A DNA stretch of 12,848 nt from Chroococcales cyanobacterium. Its GTDB lineage: Bacteria; Cyanobacteriota; Cyanobacteriia; Cyanobacteriales; Coleofasciculaceae. Position 1 is the stretch's first letter. The number at the start of each line of letters is the position of its first letter. The translations under genes and the position numbers were made by a program. The DNA is taken from positions 1 through 12,848 of the forward strand of contig DATNPT010000463.1 of the NCBI GenBank assembly GCA_036703075.1, written 5' to 3'. This document shows, piece after piece, positions 42-12,848 of this stretch. Under the pieces are notes generated by a model that was not told the origin of the DNA, made no database searches, and saw nothing but the letters and a program-made list of their open reading frames with translations.

Positions 42-110
42 ACTGGAGCCTTCCATGTGATACATGGTTTAACCTTAGCTCAGTTTTCCGTGTAATACAT
101 GGATAAGGCT
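42..110. repeat. Left IS end module with two near-palindromic 15-mers (53-67 CCATGTGATACATGG; 88-102 CCGTGTAATACATGG)
   Basis: It aligns in direct orientation with 1856-1917: ACTGGAGCCTTCCATGTGATACATGG...CCGTGTAATACATGGATAAGG versus ACTGGCTCCTTCCACGTAATACATGG...CCGTGTATTACTTGGATAAGG. Confidence 0.7.
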
Positions 111-164
111 ATGCTGACAATAGCTTCCATACCTCTTCCCAAGTTTTGTCCCTGGAGGGCAGCA

Positions 165-1814
165 ATGTCTCTACATCCGTGTTGCATCAAGCCAGTTCCC
201 CTCACAACCCGCCAAGTTGCTCAAGCCGCTTTTCCCAAAGGCAACTTATATCTAACGATGCGGGATGAAATTGGGACACTCTATAGTGACTGGGACTTTG
301 CCACTGTGTTCCCTACGGATGGTCAACCTGCTATCTGTCCTTGGCGATTGGCATTAGTTTGTGTGATGCAATTTATCGAAGGCTTATCAGACCGACAAGC
401 CGCCGAGGCGGTTCGCAGCCGTATCGACGGGAAATATGCTTTATCGTTAGAGTTAACTGACCCTGGTTTTGACTTCACTGTGCTGTGTGAATTTAGAACT
501 CGACTGATGAAAGGTGGGGTGGAACAACAACTTTTAGACCTTCTCCTAGAACAATTCAAAGAGCGTGGGTGGTTAAAGGAGAGGGGTAAGCAGCGAACTG
601 ATTCAACTCATGTAGAGGCAGCGATTCGTACCTTGAATCGACTCGAAGGCAATGGGGAAACGCCTCGGGCTGCGCTCAATGCCATTGCTACGGTTGCCCC
701 AGAATGGTTACGCTCCTGGGTTCCCCCGGAGTGGTTTGAGCGATATAGTCGGGCTGTCGATGAGTATCGCTTGCCCAAAGGAATTCCTGCCCGAACCAAG
801 TATGCTGAAACCATCGGGACGGATGGGATGCAGTTACTGAAAGCTCTGTGGGAGACTCCTAGTGTTACCTATCTGCGTCAGATTCCAGCGGTGGAAATCC
901 TGCGAGTGACCTGGATTCATCAATACTATGTTGAGAATGACCGGGTGCGCTTGCGGGCTGCGACTGATTTACCACCAACTGGGAGTCGGATGGATTCGCC
1001 TTATGACAGAGATGCTCGCTACGGCAACAAGCGTTCTGTCACCTGGACTGGATACAAAGTCCATATTACTGAAACTTGTGATCGAGATGAAGTTCATTTG
1101 ATTACTAATGTGGAGACCACTCAAGCACACATCAGCGATGTAGACCAGACCGAACCGATTCATGAGTCTTTGGCTTCCATTGCCTTGCTCCCGAACGAGC
1201 ATATTGTTGATGCGGGTTATGTTGATGCCACTTTACTTGTAACCAGCCGCAAGCAGTATGGGGTGGCAGTGGTCGGTCCAGTACGTCCCAATGTTAGTTG
1301 GCACTCTCAGATTCCAGGTGGCTACGATATTAGCCAGTTCAAGGTGAATTGGAATACCTTGCGCGTTACCTGTCCAATGGGTAAAAAGAGTCTGAAAAAG
1401 TGGACTCCTTATCAAGACAAGTGGGGTAATCAGGTCATTCGTGTGGGGTTTCCTCGACGGACGTGCCGACTTTGTCCCAGTCGTTCTCTATGTACTCGCT
1501 CAGATTCTGAACCGAGAAGACTGACTTTACGCCCCAAAAGAGAGCATGAACTGCTTCAATCTATTAGAGTTCAACAAGAAACGGACGAGTGGAAAAAAAT
1601 CTACAACACAAGGGCGGGAGTTGAGGGCACAATTTCCCAAGGCGTTAGGGGGTTTGGATTACGAAAGGCTCGCTATACGGGTTTAGCTAAAGTCCAATTA
1701 CAGCACCTGCTCACAGCAACAGCGATTAATGTGGTGCGGATGGTCGCTTGGTTGCAAGGTATGCCTCATGCCAAGACACGAACATCAAGATTTGCCGCAC
1801 TTGCTATCACTTGA
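165..1814 (+). CDS. IS1182-family DDE transposase, apparently intact (550 aa from ATG 165)
   Basis: The N-terminus MSLHP..PVP..AAFPKGN, LSDRQAAEAVRSRIDGKYALSLELTDPGFDFTVLCEFRTRL is typical of IS1182-type transposases (InsH-like N-terminal domain). Catalytic-region motifs are QRTDSTHVEA, IVDAGYVDA and YNTRAGVEGT (the Y-x2-R-x3-E signature of the IS4/IS5/IS1182 superfamily). A Cys cluster (TCPMGKK ... RRTCRLCPSRSLC) is also present. The ORF track opens at ATG 99, but that ATG lies inside the left end repeat and the homologue-like N-terminus begins at ATG 165. Confidence 0.9.
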   Translation: MSLHPCCIKPVPLTTRQVAQAAFPKGNLYLTMRDEIGTLYSDWDFATVFPTDGQPAICPWRLALVCVMQFIEGLSDRQAAEAVRSRIDGKYALSLELTDPGFDFTVLCEFRTRLMKGGVEQQLLDLLLEQFKERGWLKERGKQRTDSTHVEAAIRTLNRLEGNGETPRAALNAIATVAPEWLRSWVPPEWFERYSRAVDEYRLPKGIPARTKYAETIGTDGMQLLKALWETPSVTYLRQIPAVEILRVTWIHQYYVENDRVRLRAATDLPPTGSRMDSPYDRDARYGNKRSVTWTGYKVHITETCDRDEVHLITNVETTQAHISDVDQTEPIHESLASIALLPNEHIVDAGYVDATLLVTSRKQYGVAVVGPVRPNVSWHSQIPGGYDISQFKVNWNTLRVTCPMGKKSLKKWTPYQDKWGNQVIRVGFPRRTCRLCPSRSLCTRSDSEPRRLTLRPKREHELLQSIRVQQETDEWKKIYNTRAGVEGTISQGVRGFGLRKARYTGLAKVQLQHLLTATAINVVRMVAWLQGMPHAKTRTSRFAALAIT

Positions 1815-5636: not shown

Positions 5637-8600
5637 ATGGATTCCAACCCATCAAAATCTGGACGGAGGAGATCCGCTTCTGGGCGAGTTCGAGGAGTCA
5701 TCCTATCGCCTCAGGGATGGCAGAAATTTCAGACGGCAAAACAACGGGCGGAATCGGACGAAATCTGGGGGAAGCACTTCACCCAGGAAGATCTCAGCGA
5801 TCGCACTGGACTCTCTCTTAATACTCTTTCCCGCCTTTTTAAGCGCGAACAAGGGGTCGATCGACAGACAGTGGAGTACCTCTTCCGGGCGTTTGGGCTG
5901 GAATTAACGCAGGCAGACCTAACATCCTCTGAAGCGTCGGAGATCCACCGGATAAATCTCCAGCAAGACTGGGACATTGCGGTAGATGCCTCAGTGTTTT
6001 ATGGGCGTGAGGCAGAACTAGCGAACCTGTGGCAGTGGGTCGTGTCTGAGCACTGTCGCGTCGTTGGGGTGTTGGGCATTGGCGGCATTGGCAAAAGTAC
6101 GATCGCGGTCAAGGCTGCCCTTCAGATGCAAGCAGAATTTGAGATCGTCGTGTGGCGATCGCTTGCCAACGCACCACCGTTGGACGAACTCCTGTCAAGT
6201 CTGCTGAAATTTCTCATGCCGCTGTTTGGGGAAGATCCCATCATCCCCACTACGCTCGATCAGCAGCTTTCCAAACTGATGCAATATCTGAGATCGCGGC
6301 GGTGTTTATTGATTTTGGATAATGCTGAAATCATTTTGCAGCATGAACAGGCAGGACAATGGCGATCGGGCTACGAAGGGTACGGACAGTTGCTCAGAGC
6401 CATTGGTGAAACGTCCCATCTCAGTTGTTTGTTGCTGACTACTCGAGAAAAGCCACGGGAATTGGCGCTGATGGAAGGCGTACAGGTGCTAGTCAAATCG
6501 CTGCTCTTACCTGGATTGTCACCCGATGACGGACGTGCCATCTTTCGGCAAAAAGGCGCGTTTACAGGGTCGGAAGCTGAATGGCAAACCCTGATCCATC
6601 ACTACGGCGGTAATCCGCTGGCGTTGAAACTAGTGGCAGCCGCCACTCATGATTTGTTTGATGGCAGCATTCCAGAAGTGTTAGCCTATCTTGCTCAGGG
6701 CATTTATGTTTTTGAAGATATCCGCGATTTACTCAATCGCCAGTTTGAGCGATTGTCTGAAGCTGAACAAAAAATATTGTCCTGGTTTGCGATTCTTCGA
6801 GAACCAGTTACGTTTGCAGAGATTCGAGAACATGTGGTTGATCTTGCCACTCAGCAACAGGTGCCCAATTTGATCAACTCGCTGCTCCGGCGATCGCTAA
6901 TCGAAAAAACAGATGGGTTATTCTTCCTACAACCTGTTGTGATGGAATATGTCACAGAACGATTTGTGCAGCAGATTTGTATCGAATTTGAGACGCAGCA
7001 GCTTAACATTTTGCAAACGCATACTTTATTACAAGTACAGGCAAAAGATTACATTCGAGAGATTCAAACGCGCCTAATTATGCAACATGTGATGGAGCAG
7101 CTTCTATCTCGTTTTGGCAGTGTGGCAGCGATCGAGGCACAGGCAAGGCACTTATTGAGGCAGCAGGGGAAGAAACCAGGATATGTGACAGGCAACCTAA
7201 TTAACCTGCTAGTGCAACTTCAAGTCGATTTGCGTGGTTCAGACTTTTCTGAGTTGGTGGTGCAGCAAGCCGACTTGCGACAGGTTGATTTAGCGGGAGT
7301 CAATTTTCAGAATGTTACGTTCGCCAAATCCATCTTTTCAGAAACCATCGGTATGGCGATGTCGATCGATTTCAGTCCAGATGGTCAAACGATCGCTGTG
7401 GGCGATTCCAGTGGCAATATCTATCTCTGGAATATCACGACAACCCAACTCTTAGCCACTTTTGCAGGCCACGCGGGCTGGGTCTGGTCGGTTGCCTTTA
7501 GCCCTGATGGCAGAATGTTAGCTAGCGGTGCTACTGATAGTTCGATGCGCGTATGGAATGTCCAAACTGGTCGATGCTTGCAGGTGTTCACAGAGCATAC
7601 AGCCTGTGTTCGGTCAGTGCGTTTTAGTCCTGATGGTCAGTGGTTAGCGAGTGGCAGTGAAGACAGAACTGTGCGTGTATGGAATTTGCAAGGCGAATGT
7701 CTTCATTTGTTCAAGGGGCACACCCAAAGTGTTTATTCTGTTCACTTTGCTCCTGATCAGCAAACCTTAGTCAGCAGCAGTAATGATACTGACCTGCGGA
7801 TTTGGAATGTGCATGATGGAAACTGCTTGAGTGTCTTACAGGGGCATACCAGCGGGGTTCATTGTGTGCGATATAGCCCAGACGGTCAACTGCTTGCTAG
7901 CGGTTGCCATGATGGGTCAATTCGACTGTGGAGTGGTCATCGCTCCAACCAGCAACCGTCAAAGCCCAGTTTCACAAATTCCAGTACCAGGCTGCTGCAT
8001 AAACATATCGACTGGATTTGGGACATCGCCTTTAGCCCAGATGGTTGTTTTTTAGCCAGTGCTAGCCGCGATGGCACTCTGCGCGTCTGGAGTGTTCAAG
8101 ACGGGCAATCCATCCATAGGCTCGATGATCACACTCGTGATGTTTTTGCGCTTGCGATTAGTGCCGACAGCCAACTATTAGTGAGTGCAGGTCAAGACCA
8201 TACGGTGCGACTATGGAGTTTGCCGAGTGGACGAAGCCTCAAAACATTGCGTGGCTATACCAGTGGCATTCATTCCCTGAGCCTCAGTCCAGATAACCAA
8301 ATGCTTGCTAGTAGTAAGCAGGATGAAACCATCCAGCTGTGGCATTTACAGTTAGATGGCACTCTGTCATCGCTTCGCCCCTACAAAACCTTGTCCAACC
8401 TAACCCGTGGGATTTCATCATTAACCAATTTAAGCTTTAGTCCGGATGGTCAAACGCTGGCAATCAATCAACATGATGGCTCAATCGCCGTGTGGCAGAT
8501 ACAAACCGGGCAGTTTGAACGGTGGTCAGCGCATAACATGCCTGTATGGGCAGTACAATTTAGTCCTGGAGGGCAGATTCTGGCAAGCAGTAGTTATGAT

Positions 8601-9257
8601 TGCACCGTCCGACTATGGGATGTGCGAACTCATCATTGTTTGCAGGTGTTACAGGGGCATGAGAGCGGTATTCACGCGATCGCATTTGCCCCCAGTGGTA
8701 AAGGGTTGGCAAGTGGCAGTTTTGATCGCACCATTCGGTTATGGGATGTGCAAACTGGAGCATGTCTGAAGATATTGCAGGGACATATAGGTACAGTTTT
8801 CACACTCTCATTTGAGCGCAGTGGTCAGATCTTAGCAAGCGGCAGTTATGACCAAACCATTCGGTTATGGAATGTGCAAACTGGAGCATGTCTGAAGATA
8901 TTGCAGGGACATACGGGAATTGTGTGGACGCTTGCTATCAGTTCCAATGGTCAGATCTTAGCAAGCGGCAGTGATGACCAAACCATTCGCCTATGGGATC
9001 TGCAAACCGGGCAGTGCCTGCACATCTTGAGCGAACACACGAGTTGGGTCAGATCCGTCATCTTTAGCGGTGATAGCCAACTCTTATTCAGTAGCAGTGA
9101 CGATCACACCATTAAGCTATGGGACGCGCAGACAGGACGCTGCATCAACACGTTGACAGTTGATCGGCTTTATGAACGCATGAATATTCAAGGTGCAACC
9201 GGGCTGACAATGGGTCAGAGAGACATTCTGAGAACATTAGGGGCAATTGAGCATTAA
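5637..9257 (+). CDS. STAND NTPase: N-terminal HTH, NB-ARC (AP-ATPase) domain, pentapeptide repeats, 14 WD40 repeats (Apaf-1-like architecture)
   Basis: HTH-like segment [41 protein letters not shown] (approx nt 5694-5906). NB-ARC signatures: FYGREAEL (hhGRExE), P-loop GIGGIGKST (nt 6075-6101), Walker B LLILDNAE (D at 6318), LLLTTR (TTR/RNBS-B-like) and GGNPLAL (GLPL-like). About 7 pentapeptide units [35 protein letters not shown] (nt 7227-7346). Then 14 units of the type GH...V.SV.FSPDGq.LASGS.D.TiRLWd, enough for two 7-bladed propellers. The tail [25 protein letters not shown] is common in cyanobacterial WD40 proteins. Confidence 0.95.
8704..9081 (+). repeat. Three tandem 126-bp units (WD40 repeats 11-13) with near-identical DNA scaffold segments
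   Basis: 8730-8787 versus 8856-8913 shows 1 mismatch in 58 nt. 8823-8863 versus 8949-8989 shows 1 mismatch in 41 nt. The intervening ~35-nt patches (8788-8822 versus 8914-8948) are strongly divergent. Confidence 0.85.
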
Positions 9258-9519: not shown

Positions 9520-9553
9520 AACATTCCGTAAAACGTTCTTTTTACGGAATGTT
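9520..9553 (-). terminator. Perfect 14-bp-stem hairpin in the convergent intergenic region; possible terminator for the 895-aa ORF
   Basis: AACATTCCGTAAAA (9520-9533) pairs perfectly with TTTTACGGAATGTT (9540-9553), with loop CGTTCT. It lies 80 nt downstream of the minus-strand stop at 9633. The stem is AT-rich and there is no classical U-tract (minus-strand tail TGCTTGT), so the call is tentative. Confidence 0.35.
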
Positions 9554-9632: not shown

Positions 9633-12320
9633 TCAAATGGAGGCAGGGTTACCGGATTGGTTTGTTAGGCCTGTCTCATTCAAAACCCGATCCATGTATT
9701 GCATATTGAAGGCGATCGCAGGCTCAATCCGTCTCACGCTAGCCAGCATGTCATACTTTTCATCGTGTATTTTCCGTGAATGCTCCAACGCACAGGCAGC
9801 AGCGTCTTTGACCTCTTGGCTGGCGTTGTGAGCGCTAAGACTCGTGCTGTACATAATGCGAAGGTGTTGGGGCGGAACGCAAACGCCGAATTCCCGATTA
9901 AACATATTCTTAATCCGCGATCGCCAGGTGTCGCAATCGGCAGGTTTATTGGTGTTGCGCTTAACGAAGAAATTATTGTGCCAAGTCGCGCCTAATACGG
10001 GTCTGCCCCAGTCTAACCAGCGTCGGATGTATTGATAAAGTCGGCTCCCATCCGGAAATTCGTAATCGGGAATCAGCGCCCACCAACCAAATTCCCACTC
10101 CCCAGCGATTGTTTTGCCGATTTTTGAGTCATCAACCATATGGTGGATATAGAAGCCAATTCGGTCTTCGTAGTTTTTCAAAATCCCTTCTTTTTCCAAC
10201 TGTTCTTTACTGCGAAATTGCCCTTCCACGAAACATCCCTCCTTAAAGGTTTCGCCAATTCGCAAGTCGTAGTACGTTCTAGAGCGGCTGGGGAACGCGA
10301 TAACGGGCAAGGCAATCGACAGGAAATTTTGCAATTCTTTAGCGAGACCTGTCTCTCTTCTAGATTTGGCGGTGTAGCCCTTTTTGTGCTGACTAGATTG
10401 GTTGTATAAGATGTACCGATCGCACCGCTTTTTCTGAATCATAACAAGCCTTACCGCGTACCCCCAAGGCAGTATATTCTCATGATTAAGACGAACGGTT
10501 CTAGGTGTCGTCTTATTTTGCGCGCCAAGTTCCGCCTGTTTGTTGAGGAGCCGCCAAAGGATAGGAATCGAATTAGGCGTCGGAAAATCTTCGGTTCCGA
10601 TTTCTTCGCGATACAAAAATTTGGCTATAGCAATTATCAGAGCAATTCGCTTTTGTTTAGAGCCGGGGTGGTTTTCTTTCAGGAACTTTAGATATCTCTC
10701 CACCCTTTTCATGTCTTGATTAGCGCGAAACTGGGCGCGTGTTTTTAACAAAACCTTGAGCGAGGCCAGCTTGTTTATCTGCTCGTCATACTGGTCTAAG
10801 TCAGATTCTTCATCAATGTTATCGATGTCAATCTCTAATTCAGGAATTAGTTTGGACTTAGTTATCAGTAGTTCAAGTGCCAATTCTTCGAGTGAAATTC
10901 CTTCATACCTGTGCAGCCACCCAAGAAGCTGCATCAACTGTTCCTCCGTACCGTCTATAGTTCCCTTCACTGCACCTTCGGACTGCCACCATTCCCAAAA
11001 ATTGCGGATCTGGCTATCCAAGGCTTCGTTGATATAATCATCGGGAAATTGTTTAGCGCACAACTGATGTACGGCAACTCTTCTTTCGTGCATTTCTGCA
11101 CCCGGTGTGTGCCTTTTTTTTGTCCGATGTTCCCCGACTTTGCGAATAAGATTAAATTGAATTTCCTCGGTTGAGAAGGCAACAAGTTCAAAGTATCTTT
11201 GGCTCTCTGCCCACTCTAGCCATCCCTTAAGCTCGGTTCTAATTTTGCGGTCAATATCTGCCTCAGTACAGCCATCTTTAAGTTGTTCGGCCGGAATTTT
11301 TTCCAGGTAAGCGATTCCCGCTTTAATTTCATCGGGCGAGGTTCTGGTGCTTTTAGGAGAGGGACCTCCCATAGCTGGTACTAAATAGCGAACGACCGCA
11401 CTCTGAATCTTTCCTACCCCATTGGGCTTGTCAATCGCCTTTAGATGGTCGCAGTACGCCTCATAAATCTGGAGAGACGTGTATGAGCATTTGACCAACT
11501 CATCTTTTCTATCTTGAACACCATCGGCAGCGTCAAGCCAGGGAGGTGCTGGAATTGAATCGGGGATTAGAGGAAGATACCTTTGCTTGCGGCACCAATC
11601 GAGAAAATCTTTCAGTGCGCTTCGCAAACGTGTCCTTTGAGTCAGCGATACCCCGAGCGCTTTCATGGCGACAGTAGCCAACTCCACCGCTTTGTCCAGG
11701 TGTGCCATCGAAACCGTTTCAAGGCACTGGTGAGCTGCATCCATCTCGACACCAGTAAACTGAAGGTGCGTGACCAGCGGACCACCTACTGCTGGAACGA
11801 AATACCTAGCTAACACATTTGTGATGTTATTTTGTTGTTCTCGTCTACCTTCCAAGTGTTTGTGGTACTCAAGGTAGGCGTGTAGTGGAGTGGTAGGCTC
11901 TAAATCGTACTCGCCCAGGTTCCTCAGTGGGATTTTGGCGCATGTTTCCTGGGGGATTGGATTATGGGGAGGAGGAAGGTATTCCTCATTAAGTCCCCAG
12001 TCCACGAACTGATGCAGGGCACGTCTTATCCGTTCGCGTTGAGCATCTGAGACTTTTAGCTCGGATAGTGTTTTGGTTGCGTGTTCGTGGCAAGAAGCCA
12101 GTTGAGCGAGCGATACCTCGCTATTTAGATAATTAAGTGCTGCTTCAATCTCAATTTGAGATAACGGTCTGTACTTTTCAGCATTAGGAATAGGACCCCC
12201 TAAAGAGGGGATGAAGTATTTAATTATCCCACTCCTAAAGTTGTTCATAGCTTCCCGGTCATCTTGTAAGGTTTCCAGGTATCTTGTATAAATTTCATTA
12301 GCCGTTAATTTAGTCTCCAA
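9633..12320 (-). CDS. Giant (895 aa) atypical tyrosine recombinase-like protein: triplicated N-terminal helical module, SAM-like core-binding region, C-terminal catalytic domain
   Basis: The 2.7-kb ORF starts at TTG, with AAGGAG (12330-12335, minus) 9 nt upstream. C-terminal pattern in canonical order: IAFPSRSRTYYDL (R679/R681), DSKIGKTIAGEWEF (K733/K736), PPQHLRIMYSTSL (R821, codon 9858-9860), LEHSRKIHDEKYD (H847 at 9780-9782, Y856 at 9753-9755, H-to-Y spacing 9). aa 6-378 form three tandem related modules, each with (K/R)Y(F/L)(I/V)P(S/A)xGGP. That it is a gene is near certain. The family assignment rests on motifs read by eye only. Confidence 0.8.
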   Translation of the reverse strand: METKLTANEIYTRYLETLQDDREAMNNFRSGIIKYFIPSLGGPIPNAEKYRPLSQIEIEAALNYLNSEVSLAQLASCHEHATKTLSELKVSDAQRERIRRALHQFVDWGLNEEYLPPPHNPIPQETCAKIPLRNLGEYDLEPTTPLHAYLEYHKHLEGRREQQNNITNVLARYFVPAVGGPLVTHLQFTGVEMDAAHQCLETVSMAHLDKAVELATVAMKALGVSLTQRTRLRSALKDFLDWCRKQRYLPLIPDSIPAPPWLDAADGVQDRKDELVKCSYTSLQIYEAYCDHLKAIDKPNGVGKIQSAVVRYLVPAMGGPSPKSTRTSPDEIKAGIAYLEKIPAEQLKDGCTEADIDRKIRTELKGWLEWAESQRYFELVAFSTEEIQFNLIRKVGEHRTKKRHTPGAEMHERRVAVHQLCAKQFPDDYINEALDSQIRNFWEWWQSEGAVKGTIDGTEEQLMQLLGWLHRYEGISLEELALELLITKSKLIPELEIDIDNIDEESDLDQYDEQINKLASLKVLLKTRAQFRANQDMKRVERYLKFLKENHPGSKQKRIALIIAIAKFLYREEIGTEDFPTPNSIPILWRLLNKQAELGAQNKTTPRTVRLNHENILPWGYAVRLVMIQKKRCDRYILYNQSSQHKKGYTAKSRRETGLAKELQNFLSIALPVIAFPSRSRTYYDLRIGETFKEGCFVEGQFRSKEQLEKEGILKNYEDRIGFYIHHMVDDSKIGKTIAGEWEFGWWALIPDYEFPDGSRLYQYIRRWLDWGRPVLGATWHNNFFVKRNTNKPADCDTWRSRIKNMFNREFGVCVPPQHLRIMYSTSLSAHNASQEVKDAAACALEHSRKIHDEKYDMLASVRRIEPAIAFNMQYMDRVLNETGLTNQSGNPASI

Positions 12321-12350: not shown

Positions 12351-12668
12351 GTTTCTAATTGTCGTATAAGCTATAGATAAATTGCCAACAAAAAAGAACT
12401 ATACGTATAGTTCAAAATTTGAATATTTGGTTTTAATTTTATTTAATTATACGACAAAAATGTTTCTAATTTACAGACTATTTTGATGATGTTGAGTTAG
12501 TAGCACAACAATCCAACATTTTGGGATGAGGGACAAAGGTCAGAACTCTTGTCTAATAAGGGTTTTAGCTTTTAAACCATCTCTTATCTCAAGGAAATGT
12601 CGTATAAGAATGTCGTATAGTTATACGACACCTTATACGACTCATCTCCTTCGTCGTATACGTATAGT
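12351..12668. repeat. Array of GTCGTATA(A/G) motifs in both orientations; candidate recombinase or regulator binding sites
   Basis: Exact GTCGTATA occurs at 12361, 12599, 12612 and 12653. Exact TATACGAC occurs at 12448-12455, 12622-12629 and 12634-12641. The 10-mer GTCGTATAAG is identical at 12361-12370, 12599-12608 and, in reverse, 12632-12641. GTCGTATA-GT-TATACGAC forms an 8+8 inverted pair at 12612-12629. The related CGTATAG/CTATACG half-sites occur in the palindrome at 12396-12413 and at 12661-12667. The motif was not seen elsewhere in the window. Confidence 0.85.
12396..12413. repeat. Perfect 18-bp palindrome GAACTATACGTATAGTTC
   Basis: The sequence is exactly self-complementary. It lies 76-93 nt upstream of the start codon of the 895-aa ORF. 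Its inner 12 bp, TATACGTATAGT (12400-12411), recurs at 12657-12668. Confidence 0.95.
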
Positions 12669-12848
12669 CTCAATGCTTTTGTATTAGCTTTTCGGTTGTT
12701 TTTTGTTAATAATTAGGGCTTGCTGCGAAAAGCGGAAACCCTGAGCTATCAATAGGTTGAGCGGTATTGAAAGTTGCTCAACTCCAAGGCAATCAGGTAA
12801 AATCCAACAAAACCCTTGCACCTCCACCAGGGAAAATGTACCGGAAAG

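Follow-up and report, generated by a model that had tools for sequence, protein, structure and literature searches.

The window, that is, the whole 12,848-nucleotide stretch of DNA analysed here, comprises positions 1 to 12,848 of contig DATNPT010000463.1 in the assembly GCA_036703075.1 of a Chroococcales cyanobacterium. This report concerns a recombinase-like gene on its minus strand (9633..12320) and the repeat array that lies beside it. According to the list of open reading frames (ORFs), the gene encodes a protein of 895 amino acids (aa), begins with a TTG start codon (12318-12320) and ends with a stop codon at 9633-9635. A Shine-Dalgarno sequence, AAGGAG, is located 10 nt upstream of the TTG codon, and a 90%-identical homologue (locus L014) has the same start context. 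The protein shows a 100% match to a hypothetical protein from a metagenome-assembled genome of a Chroococcales cyanobacterium. The ORF is real, and the peptides quoted from it in a preliminary description of the window, made from the sequence alone, were all found where that description had placed them. From its N-terminus the protein consists of three tandem modules (R1, R2 and R3), a putative core-binding region and a catalytic domain. It is very probably a real but highly divergent tyrosine recombinase with an intact active site and three extra core-binding-like domains.

A word-indexed search yielded 19 relatives of the protein, all of them labelled hypothetical and cyanobacterial wherever the source names the organism, and an exhaustive search with a family profile (A1) yielded 591 clusters. 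The family has no Pfam model. Its typical member has a length of ~600 aa and covers only the profile positions ~282-876, corresponding to R3 and the rest of the protein. Among 166 sampled family proteins, one module was present in 103 full-length proteins, two modules in 4 and three in 20. The window protein is the elaborated end of this 1-2-3 module series and not a singleton; the preliminary description had not recognised a described family in it, and it proves to be the three-module form within a large family whose usual form has a single module. Some single-module members are annotated in RefSeq as 'integrase', 'site-specific integrase' or 'tyrosine-type recombinase'. In a published classification of tyrosine recombinases (PMC8138268), tandem core-binding domains are listed for RitA alone (two domains), and the present family is not described. 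The fold and the chemistry are already known; the family is unnamed and unstudied, and the triplication of a core-binding-like domain is without a described counterpart beyond the two-domain RitA. In two much larger members, P0119 (1369 aa) and P0143 (1382 aa), the profile match is broken into 4-5 stretches; the recombinase part begins around residue 715, and the N-terminal ~700 aa have no Pfam hit.

The catalytic domain was delimited at aa ~641-895 (9636..10400, minus strand) by Foldseek similarity to XerA, by matches to integrases in BFVD and by comparison of the family profile with XerD. An AlphaFold2 (AF2) model of aa 400-895 reached a mean predicted local distance difference test score (pLDDT) of 72.6, with the blocks of the catalytic domain mostly at 80-96. 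When this model was compared with the PDB using Foldseek, the sole confident matches were to XerA (5hxy; probability 0.98-1.00). Regarding BFVD, seven of the nine top matches had probabilities of 0.94-1.00 and the other two of 0.87 (best E 7.7e-6); all of the named ones but one were integrases or Tyr-recombinase-domain proteins. The distant family member P0093 passes the Pfam model PF00589 (Phage_integrase) with 34.2 bits (cut-off 27.1), and three others remain just under the cut-off. A profile of 78 single-module members matches XerD (1.1e-7), an XerC-like recombinase (7.8e-7) and the Tn1549 Int (5e-4), as well as an XerD-FtsK fusion and XerA. In these alignments the family motifs '..sPheLRkiyvT..' and '..HS.......Y' correspond to 'SPHVLRHAFAT' and 'GHSDLSTTQIY' of XerD. 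The fold, the transitive profile matches and a catalytic set in canonical order identify the C-terminal ~250 aa as a tyrosine recombinase catalytic domain, as had been proposed from the sequence.

Conservation of the catalytic residues was counted over the 131 family members of at least 540 aa, and their codons were verified on the minus strand of the window: R679 (10284-10286), K733 (10122-10124), Q818 (9867-9869), R821 (9858-9860), H847 (9780-9782) and Y856 (9753-9755). The preliminary description had offered two candidates for the first Arg, of which R679 is retained (131/131) and R681 (102/131) is dropped. It had also proposed K736, which is found in 79 of the 131 members; the conserved Lys is K733 (128/131). 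R821 (130/131), H847 (124/131) and Y856 (129/131) are as proposed; they align in the family profile with the R, H and Y of the XerD motifs, and H847 and Y856 are 9 residues apart. The near-strict conservation of the catalytic residues argues for retained chemistry. The first-His slot, three residues before R821, is occupied by His in 62, by Lys in 35 and by Gln in 14 of the 131 members, and the suspected Gln in the HxxR position of the window protein is indeed present as Gln818.

The N-terminal modules were detected using a family-wide hidden Markov model (HMM) made from 40 diverse module copies. R1 comprises aa 6-121 (11958..12305; E=5.4e-33), R2 aa 144-253 (11562..11891; E=1.7e-34) and R3 aa 281-379 (11184..11480; E=1.1e-29), all encoded on the minus strand; each copy thus has an E-value of at most 1e-29, and the start-to-start spacing is 138 and 137 aa. 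R3 is the counterpart of the single module in the ~600-aa members. Using BLASTP, R1 and R2 share 36% identity over 113 aa (E=1e-21), while E-values of 6e-11 and 1e-11 were obtained for R1 against R3 and for R2 against R3, respectively. The profile-profile probabilities among the three copies are 99.6-99.9% (hhalign, 99.9% for R2 against R1). By BLASTP, profile-profile comparison and the module HMM, the three tandem copies with a period of ~138 aa noted in the preliminary description are a genuine triplication.

In the AF2 model of aa 1-400 (mean pLDDT 80), the modules form three six-helix bundles, each separated from the next by a low-confidence linker; with a predicted template modelling score (pTM) of 0.50, the inter-domain geometry of the model is arbitrary. 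R1 is all-helical and core-binding-like, with helices at residues 7-17, 22-39, 55-68, 71-75, 77-87 and 92-111 and block-mean pLDDT values of about 75-92. The modules are thus predicted to be all-helical, unlike the classical beta-sheet arm-binding domain of integrases of the lambda Int, Tn916 and CTnDOT types. The two best PDB matches of the module profile, an integrase N-terminal domain (3nrw, E 0.13) and the XerD N-terminal domain (E 0.81), are weak. To represent the canonical core-binding domain, this part of four small Xer-like recombinases from the same plasmids was aligned; the module profile matched this reference end to end over 87 columns (hhalign 67%, E 5e-5), whereas all controls (the reversed reference and 20 column-shuffled references) gave probabilities of at most 1.4% and E-values of at least 0.036. 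These comparisons support, with moderate confidence, the assignment of the module as a putative divergent copy of the SAM-like core-binding domain, and the protein would accordingly hold four tandem core-binding-like domains ahead of its catalytic domain. Per-sequence Pfam scans of the 40 modules gave scattered single matches only (Phage_int_SAM_1 and Phage_int_SAM_6 at E ~0.01, one member each), which do not constitute evidence alone, and hhalign detected no relation of the modules to the core-binding, middle or catalytic regions of the same protein. A match of R2 to Bac_globin (E 0.0017, below the cut-off) was rejected as helical-bundle noise. R2 is the only basic module (isoelectric point (pI) 9.1).

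The putative core-binding region, followed by a long helix and a linker, is located at aa 430-600 (10521..11033, minus strand) and contains the motif LGWLHRYE; residues G467, W468, L469, H470 and R471 are invariant among the 19 homologues. (Note that homologue P0005 was left out of one homologue alignment.) The part of the family equivalent to aa ~400-510 matches the second half of the canonical core-binding domain (hhalign 56%, E 1e-4), the XerA Foldseek alignments cover this region as well as the catalytic domain, and a weak match to 3nrw lies at profile positions 450-488. The SAM-like core-binding domain that had been read at aa ~430-590 thus finds moderate support in the resemblance at aa ~400-510, which extends to the second half of the domain only. 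An acidic insert, ELEIDIDNIDEESDLDQYDEQ, occupies aa 494-514 (10779..10841, minus strand; coordinates checked). This linker, which had also been pointed out beforehand, is specific to the subclade of the window protein (P0001-P0006) and absent from the clade of ~40% identity.

Members of the family were found on plasmids. PLSDB contains 15 records with a family member, every one a cyanobacterial plasmid (14.8-159 kb) and almost every one non-mobilizable; one Geminocystis strain harbours four plasmids, each with its own family copy. Full-length homologues occur on plasmid D of Trichormus variabilis (27 kb, circular), on a 39.5-kb record of Nostoc sp. C110 and on a 36-kb record of Cylindrospermum. 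In the reference genomes, which were scanned with a narrow peptide pattern that found 3 loci and under-samples the family, the three-module genes are on contigs of 36-43 kb. No match was obtained in 50,697 phage genome records. The family gene repeatedly adjoins a replication gene of the DUF3854/D5_N/DUF5906 or primase type. The smallest carrier, a 14.8-kb Calothrix plasmid, encodes a CyRepA-type Rep and the large recombinase, with no other recombinase among the proteins scanned. CyRepA and CyRepX, the cyanobacterial Reps that have been defined by experiment, are helicase-like (PMC10899382); neither DUF3854/primase nor DEXDc/helicase-like domains were detected in the window protein by the Pfam scan. 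Since a separate CyRepA-type DUF3854/D5_N/DUF5906 Rep is encoded by the smallest carrier and several others, the family is not the missing Rep of those plasmids, and the plasmid Rep reading was rejected. From its distribution we infer that the family belongs to the maintenance backbone of cyanobacterial plasmids.

Upstream of the gene, the heptamer TCGTATA occurs seven times, with all seven window copies located within 12362-12660, whereas 0.86 copies were expected and none of 200 shuffles reached seven; the multi-copy site array reported next to the gene is accordingly real. The array has two parts. The proximal triplet consists of a first site, GTCGTATA (12361-12368, plus strand), a perfect palindrome, GAACTATACGTATAGTTC (12396-12413), and an inverted site, TATACGAC (12448-12455, minus strand). 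The best promoter-like match of the region overlaps the palindrome (12382-12411). The distal block (12599..12668), read from the sequence, consists of four GTCGTATA sites in the arrangement -> -> <- <- starting at 12599, 12612, 12622 and 12634 (12599-12641) and of a further element, GTCGTATACGTATAGT, at 12653-12668. The inner inverted pair (12612-12629) reads GTCGTA-TAGTTA-TACGAC.

Three loci (L005, L013 and L016) encode homologues that are 75-87% identical to the window protein, and all three keep the distal block site for site. The proximal triplet is present in the same order in L005 and L016; L013 keeps the palindrome, with both flanking sites degenerate. In L013 the central 6 bp of the inner inverted pair differ (TAGCTA instead of TAGTTA) and the arms are kept, a variable centre between kept arms being the behaviour that would be expected of a crossover spacer. 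The similarity of the locus of P0003, a 90%-identical homologue, to the window (L014 2937-3001, L017 8331-8395) begins exactly at the edge of the proximal site (window 12355-12375). An old recombination event or a simple rearrangement could have produced this breakpoint; in L014, the junction retains no hybrid half-site. The replaced DNA at this junction contains the cyanobacterial HIP1 palindrome GCGATCGC.

In the close relatives, a gene for a ribbon-helix-helix (RHH) protein of ~88 aa is found beyond the array and is transcribed divergently from the recombinase gene: L005 2802-3068 (Pfam RHH_1 with 20.9 bits, cut-off 20.5), L016 2340-2609 and, as an uncalled ORF, L013 2349-2612. The last 13 bases of the window (12836..12848, plus strand; ATG TAC CGG AAA G, 'MYRK') are, judging from their position in the homologous loci, probably the start of this divergent gene, cut by the contig end. 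Divergent RHH-like genes are also found near distant single-module members from Calothrix and Geminocystis (L007 2504-2701 and L012 1657-1902), which suggests that RHH protein and recombinase form a conserved gene pair recurring even beside distant members. Judged by this co-occurrence, the link of the array to the RHH gene is no looser than its link to the recombinase, and its sites may be bound by the RHH protein, the recombinase or both. A second small gene (~90 aa, motif IQNSP..LP..FAGNE...MTK.ELETFID.RW, no Pfam hit) recurs immediately past the RHH gene; in the absence of that gene, it takes the position next upstream of the recombinase gene (L005 2424-2687, L013 1932-2222, L014 2659-2937).

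The three-module clade of ~40% identity has another upstream motif, CTTGCAA or CTTGTAA, again accompanied by long palindromes. These are perfect, 26-30 bp in length and flanked by runs of A and T, e.g. AAAACCTTGCAATATATATTGCAAGGTTTT, and are located at 9611-9640 in L001, at 16016-16043 in L006 and about 150-180 bp upstream of the gene in L010; they could serve as binding sites, as bidirectional terminators or as both. From one related plasmid to another, CTTGCAA changes to CTTGTAA in an unchanged layout.

The best overall explanation starts from established features of the protein, namely its fold, the conservation of its catalytic residues, the triplication and its association with plasmids. 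It is probable that the gene encodes a divergent tyrosine recombinase of the plasmid backbone, carrying a triplicated module and recombining at the control region that it shares with its neighbour. The enzyme would cut and rejoin DNA via a 3'-phosphotyrosine at Y856, and its recombination site would be situated in the control region common to the recombinase gene and the divergent RHH gene, with GTCGTA-TAGTTA-TACGAC (12612-12629) as the best candidate for the core site. Through contacts of the extra modules with neighbouring repeats or with partner subunits, a defined synapse would be built, and the RHH protein would act as a repressor and/or an accessory factor. The usual plan of the family is a protein of ~600 aa with one extra N-terminal helical domain, a core-binding region and a catalytic domain, the extra domain having been triplicated in the lineage of the window protein. 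As to its role, keeping the plasmid monomeric (multimer resolution) is tentatively proposed, at somewhat less than even confidence; a related plasmid-specific recombination is the alternative likely role. A bolder extension, which we regard as rather unlikely, is a single-polypeptide route to a topologically defined synapse. Duplications of the recombinase's own core-binding domain would provide each subunit with up to four DNA-reading heads, which would hold the core half-site and the adjacent GTCGTATA repeats at the same time. Module number (1, 2 or 3) would change in evolution along with the complexity of the site array, and the heads would replace the accessory proteins used by Xer at cer or psi or the extra protomers used by TnpI and IntI.

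Several observations weigh against this explanation. The profile searches with the protein itself that had been suggested in the preliminary description found no Pfam, NCBIfam or PDB sequence model that matches it significantly, and a profile of the three-module clade did not match the four small recombinases significantly either (probability 1%, E 0.055, although in the correct register). Direct sequence matches are thus lacking for this clade, so that the catalytic assignment rests on predicted structure and transitive homology. The residue in the place of the first His is Gln818, and the slot is not conserved in the three-module clade, for which reason the activity could be reduced or altered. 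Substitutions of the first His are tolerated in parts of the tyrosine recombinase superfamily, and Gln818 does not exclude membership in it. The model of the three modules yielded no significant Foldseek match (all probabilities <=0.11), and R1 and R3 are acidic (pI 5.5 and 5.8). The centres of the inner array sites are only 10 bp apart; recombinase half-sites would be crowded at this distance if the motif did not overlap the spacer. The 11.6-kb contig of P0003, the 90%-identical homologue, has neither the array nor the RHH gene, and at the locus of the 68%-identical P0006 nothing but a degenerate proximal palindrome is left of the two. A small Xer-like recombinase, which could carry out multimer resolution, is encoded on several of the carrier plasmids as well. 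Finally, no recombination product, second site or multimer was observed.

Of the other readings, the one to be taken most seriously is that the GTCGTATA array is the operator of the divergent RHH repressor, governing both divergent promoters, and does not provide arm or core sites for the recombinase. The modules would then serve elsewhere, in protein-protein contacts or at sites elsewhere on the plasmid, and the protein could still be a recombinase. Sites of 8 bp, spaced 10-13 bp apart in a mixture of direct and inverted orientations, are typical of cooperative RHH operators such as those of omega, MetJ and Arc, and this is the arrangement found here. RHH gene and array occur together in L005, L013 and L016 (and probably in the window) and are both absent in L017, divergent RHH-like genes also lie upstream of the distant single-module members in L007 and L012, the best promoter-like match overlaps the proximal palindrome, and R1 and R3 are acidic. 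Conversely, the three-module clade of ~40% identity has its own upstream motif and palindromes with no recognisable RHH ORF; in addition, the central 6 bp vary between conserved arms as in a crossover spacer, the homology breakpoint of L014 falls at a site edge, and a recombinase site is normally close to its own gene. On balance the operator is a possible explanation, though probably not the correct one. It nevertheless affects the earlier suggestion that the array provides arm sites for the three modules, which is not supported in that form given the co-occurrence with the RHH gene, the joint absence of array and RHH gene beside the 90%-identical homologue, the centre-to-centre spacing of 10-13 bp, which fits small RHH dimers better than core sites of a recombinase, and the acidic R1 and R3. 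The arm-site idea is attractive, and the evidence neither establishes it nor favours it over the RHH operator.

That the protein is an integrase by which the plasmid or a part of it enters another replicon and is excised again, with an attP-like upstream region whose arm sites the extra modules bind and with the RHH protein as directionality factor, is considered decidedly unlikely. Extra N-terminal DNA-binding domains and many sites near the gene are a hallmark of heterobivalent integrases (PMC8138268), some relatives are annotated as integrases, and in L014 other DNA takes over upstream of the proximal site, precisely at its edge, as would be seen at an old recombination junction. This junction has no hybrid half-site, however, and all located copies reside on plasmid-sized replicons with Rep and/or ParA; a chromosomal copy flanked by half-sites was not seen, a phage match was not obtained, and the modules are all-helical instead of having the beta-sheet arm-binding fold. 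An attP with a tRNA target was rejected because the window contains no tRNA gene. A switch that inverts or deletes the DNA between the two TATACGTATA palindromes (12396-12413 and 12653-12668), altering the expression of the divergent genes, would account for two copies of a palindromic element ~250 bp apart that bracket the four-site block in a region with divergent promoters. It is very unlikely: the region is present in four loci and colinear in all of them, and neither an inverted nor a deleted variant was seen (in assembled consensus sequences, in which minority orientations are invisible). Most improbable, and already largely refuted, is a replication initiator with iteron repeats or a telomere resolvase of a linear plasmid. 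The repeat array directly upstream of the gene, the perfect palindromes, the location of the gene beside replication genes and the lack of an annotated Rep on some carrier plasmids would fit such a protein, but an enzyme forming a 3'-phosphotyrosine leaves no 3'-OH primer, and a pure iteron binder has no need of invariant catalytic residues. The separate CyRepA-type Rep (DUF3854/D5_N/DUF5906) on the smallest carrier and several others also argues against an initiator (PMC10899382). The telomere resolvase (TelK, TelN and ResT are examples), which the preliminary description had named among the families to search, was rejected in view of the circular carrier records, the palindromes internal to the contigs and the lack of any telomere-resolvase family among the Pfam and PDB matches.

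The plasmid-backbone recombinase proposed here shares features with several known systems. It has the catalytic fold and the residue order of XerD, XerC and archaeal XerA in common, XerA being the best structural and XerD the best profile match; the Xer enzymes have a helical core-binding domain ahead of the catalytic domain, in the place of the putative core-binding region of the present protein, and multimer resolution is the role tentatively put forward here. The Xer enzymes have ~300 aa, whereas the 895-aa window protein has three added helical modules, a long linker with an acidic insert, Gln in place of the first His and no direct Pfam hit, and its family is plasmid-borne and restricted to cyanobacteria. 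RitA ('recombinase in trio'), with two sequential core-binding domains, is the only documented precedent found for a tandem core-binding duplication (PMC8138268); it is likened here by the description of its architecture, against four core-binding-like domains in the window protein. The genes of RitA form recombinase trios, whereas the 12.8-kb window yielded no second recombinase gene. In TnpI/IRS of Tn4430 and in IntI/attI, the recombinase gene lies beside a compound site, in which an inverted core pair is accompanied by extra direct motif repeats that give selectivity. The -> -> <- <- block resembles this layout, and the similarity may be one of appearance only. TnpI and IntI have about 280-340 aa with a single DNA-binding N-terminal domain, and their accessory repeats are bound by additional protomers. 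Unlike in Tn4430 and the integrons, neither a Tn3-family transposase nor an integron cassette array is present here. The integrases of the lambda-Int type embody the same concept of one or more extra N-terminal domains and many sites near the gene, but their arm-binding domain is a small beta-sheet fold, whereas the modules described here are six-helix bundles, and a phage or integrative and conjugative element context is missing.

The remaining genes of the window are of other kinds. Convergent to the recombinase gene lies a WD40 gene (5637-9257, plus strand; 1206 aa), whose product has a P-loop-like central region (GIGGIGKS) and at least 13 WD40 repeats. A perfect hairpin between the two genes (9520..9553), read from the sequence as AACATTCCGTAAAA-cgttct-TTTTACGGAATGTT with a 14-bp stem and a 6-nt loop, is likely a bidirectional terminator, although a simple terminator scan did not list it. 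Plasmids with recombinase homologues also encode NACHT or pentapeptide proteins (L001, L012), which may represent conflict or defence cargo. An IS4-like DDE transposase (DDE_Tnp_1_6, DUF772; 99-1814, plus strand) is located at the contig end opposite to the recombinase and is followed by a minus-strand block of small metabolic genes (cupin, alpha/beta hydrolase, SDR, glyoxalase).

Tyrosine recombinases are workhorses of genome maintenance and of genome engineering, and as a rule they owe their site selectivity and directionality to accessory proteins or to a beta-sheet arm-binding domain. The present family shows a different evolutionary route, the serial duplication of a helical core-binding domain, with one, two and three copies existing in nature. 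If the extra domains read DNA, the members of the family would be self-contained, multi-site-specific recombinases, and a missing maintenance function of cyanobacterial plasmids would have been identified that would be useful for the design of vectors for these organisms. Should these domains have no DNA-reading function, there would still be a new, clearly bounded recombinase family and a conserved pair of RHH and recombinase genes that merit annotation.

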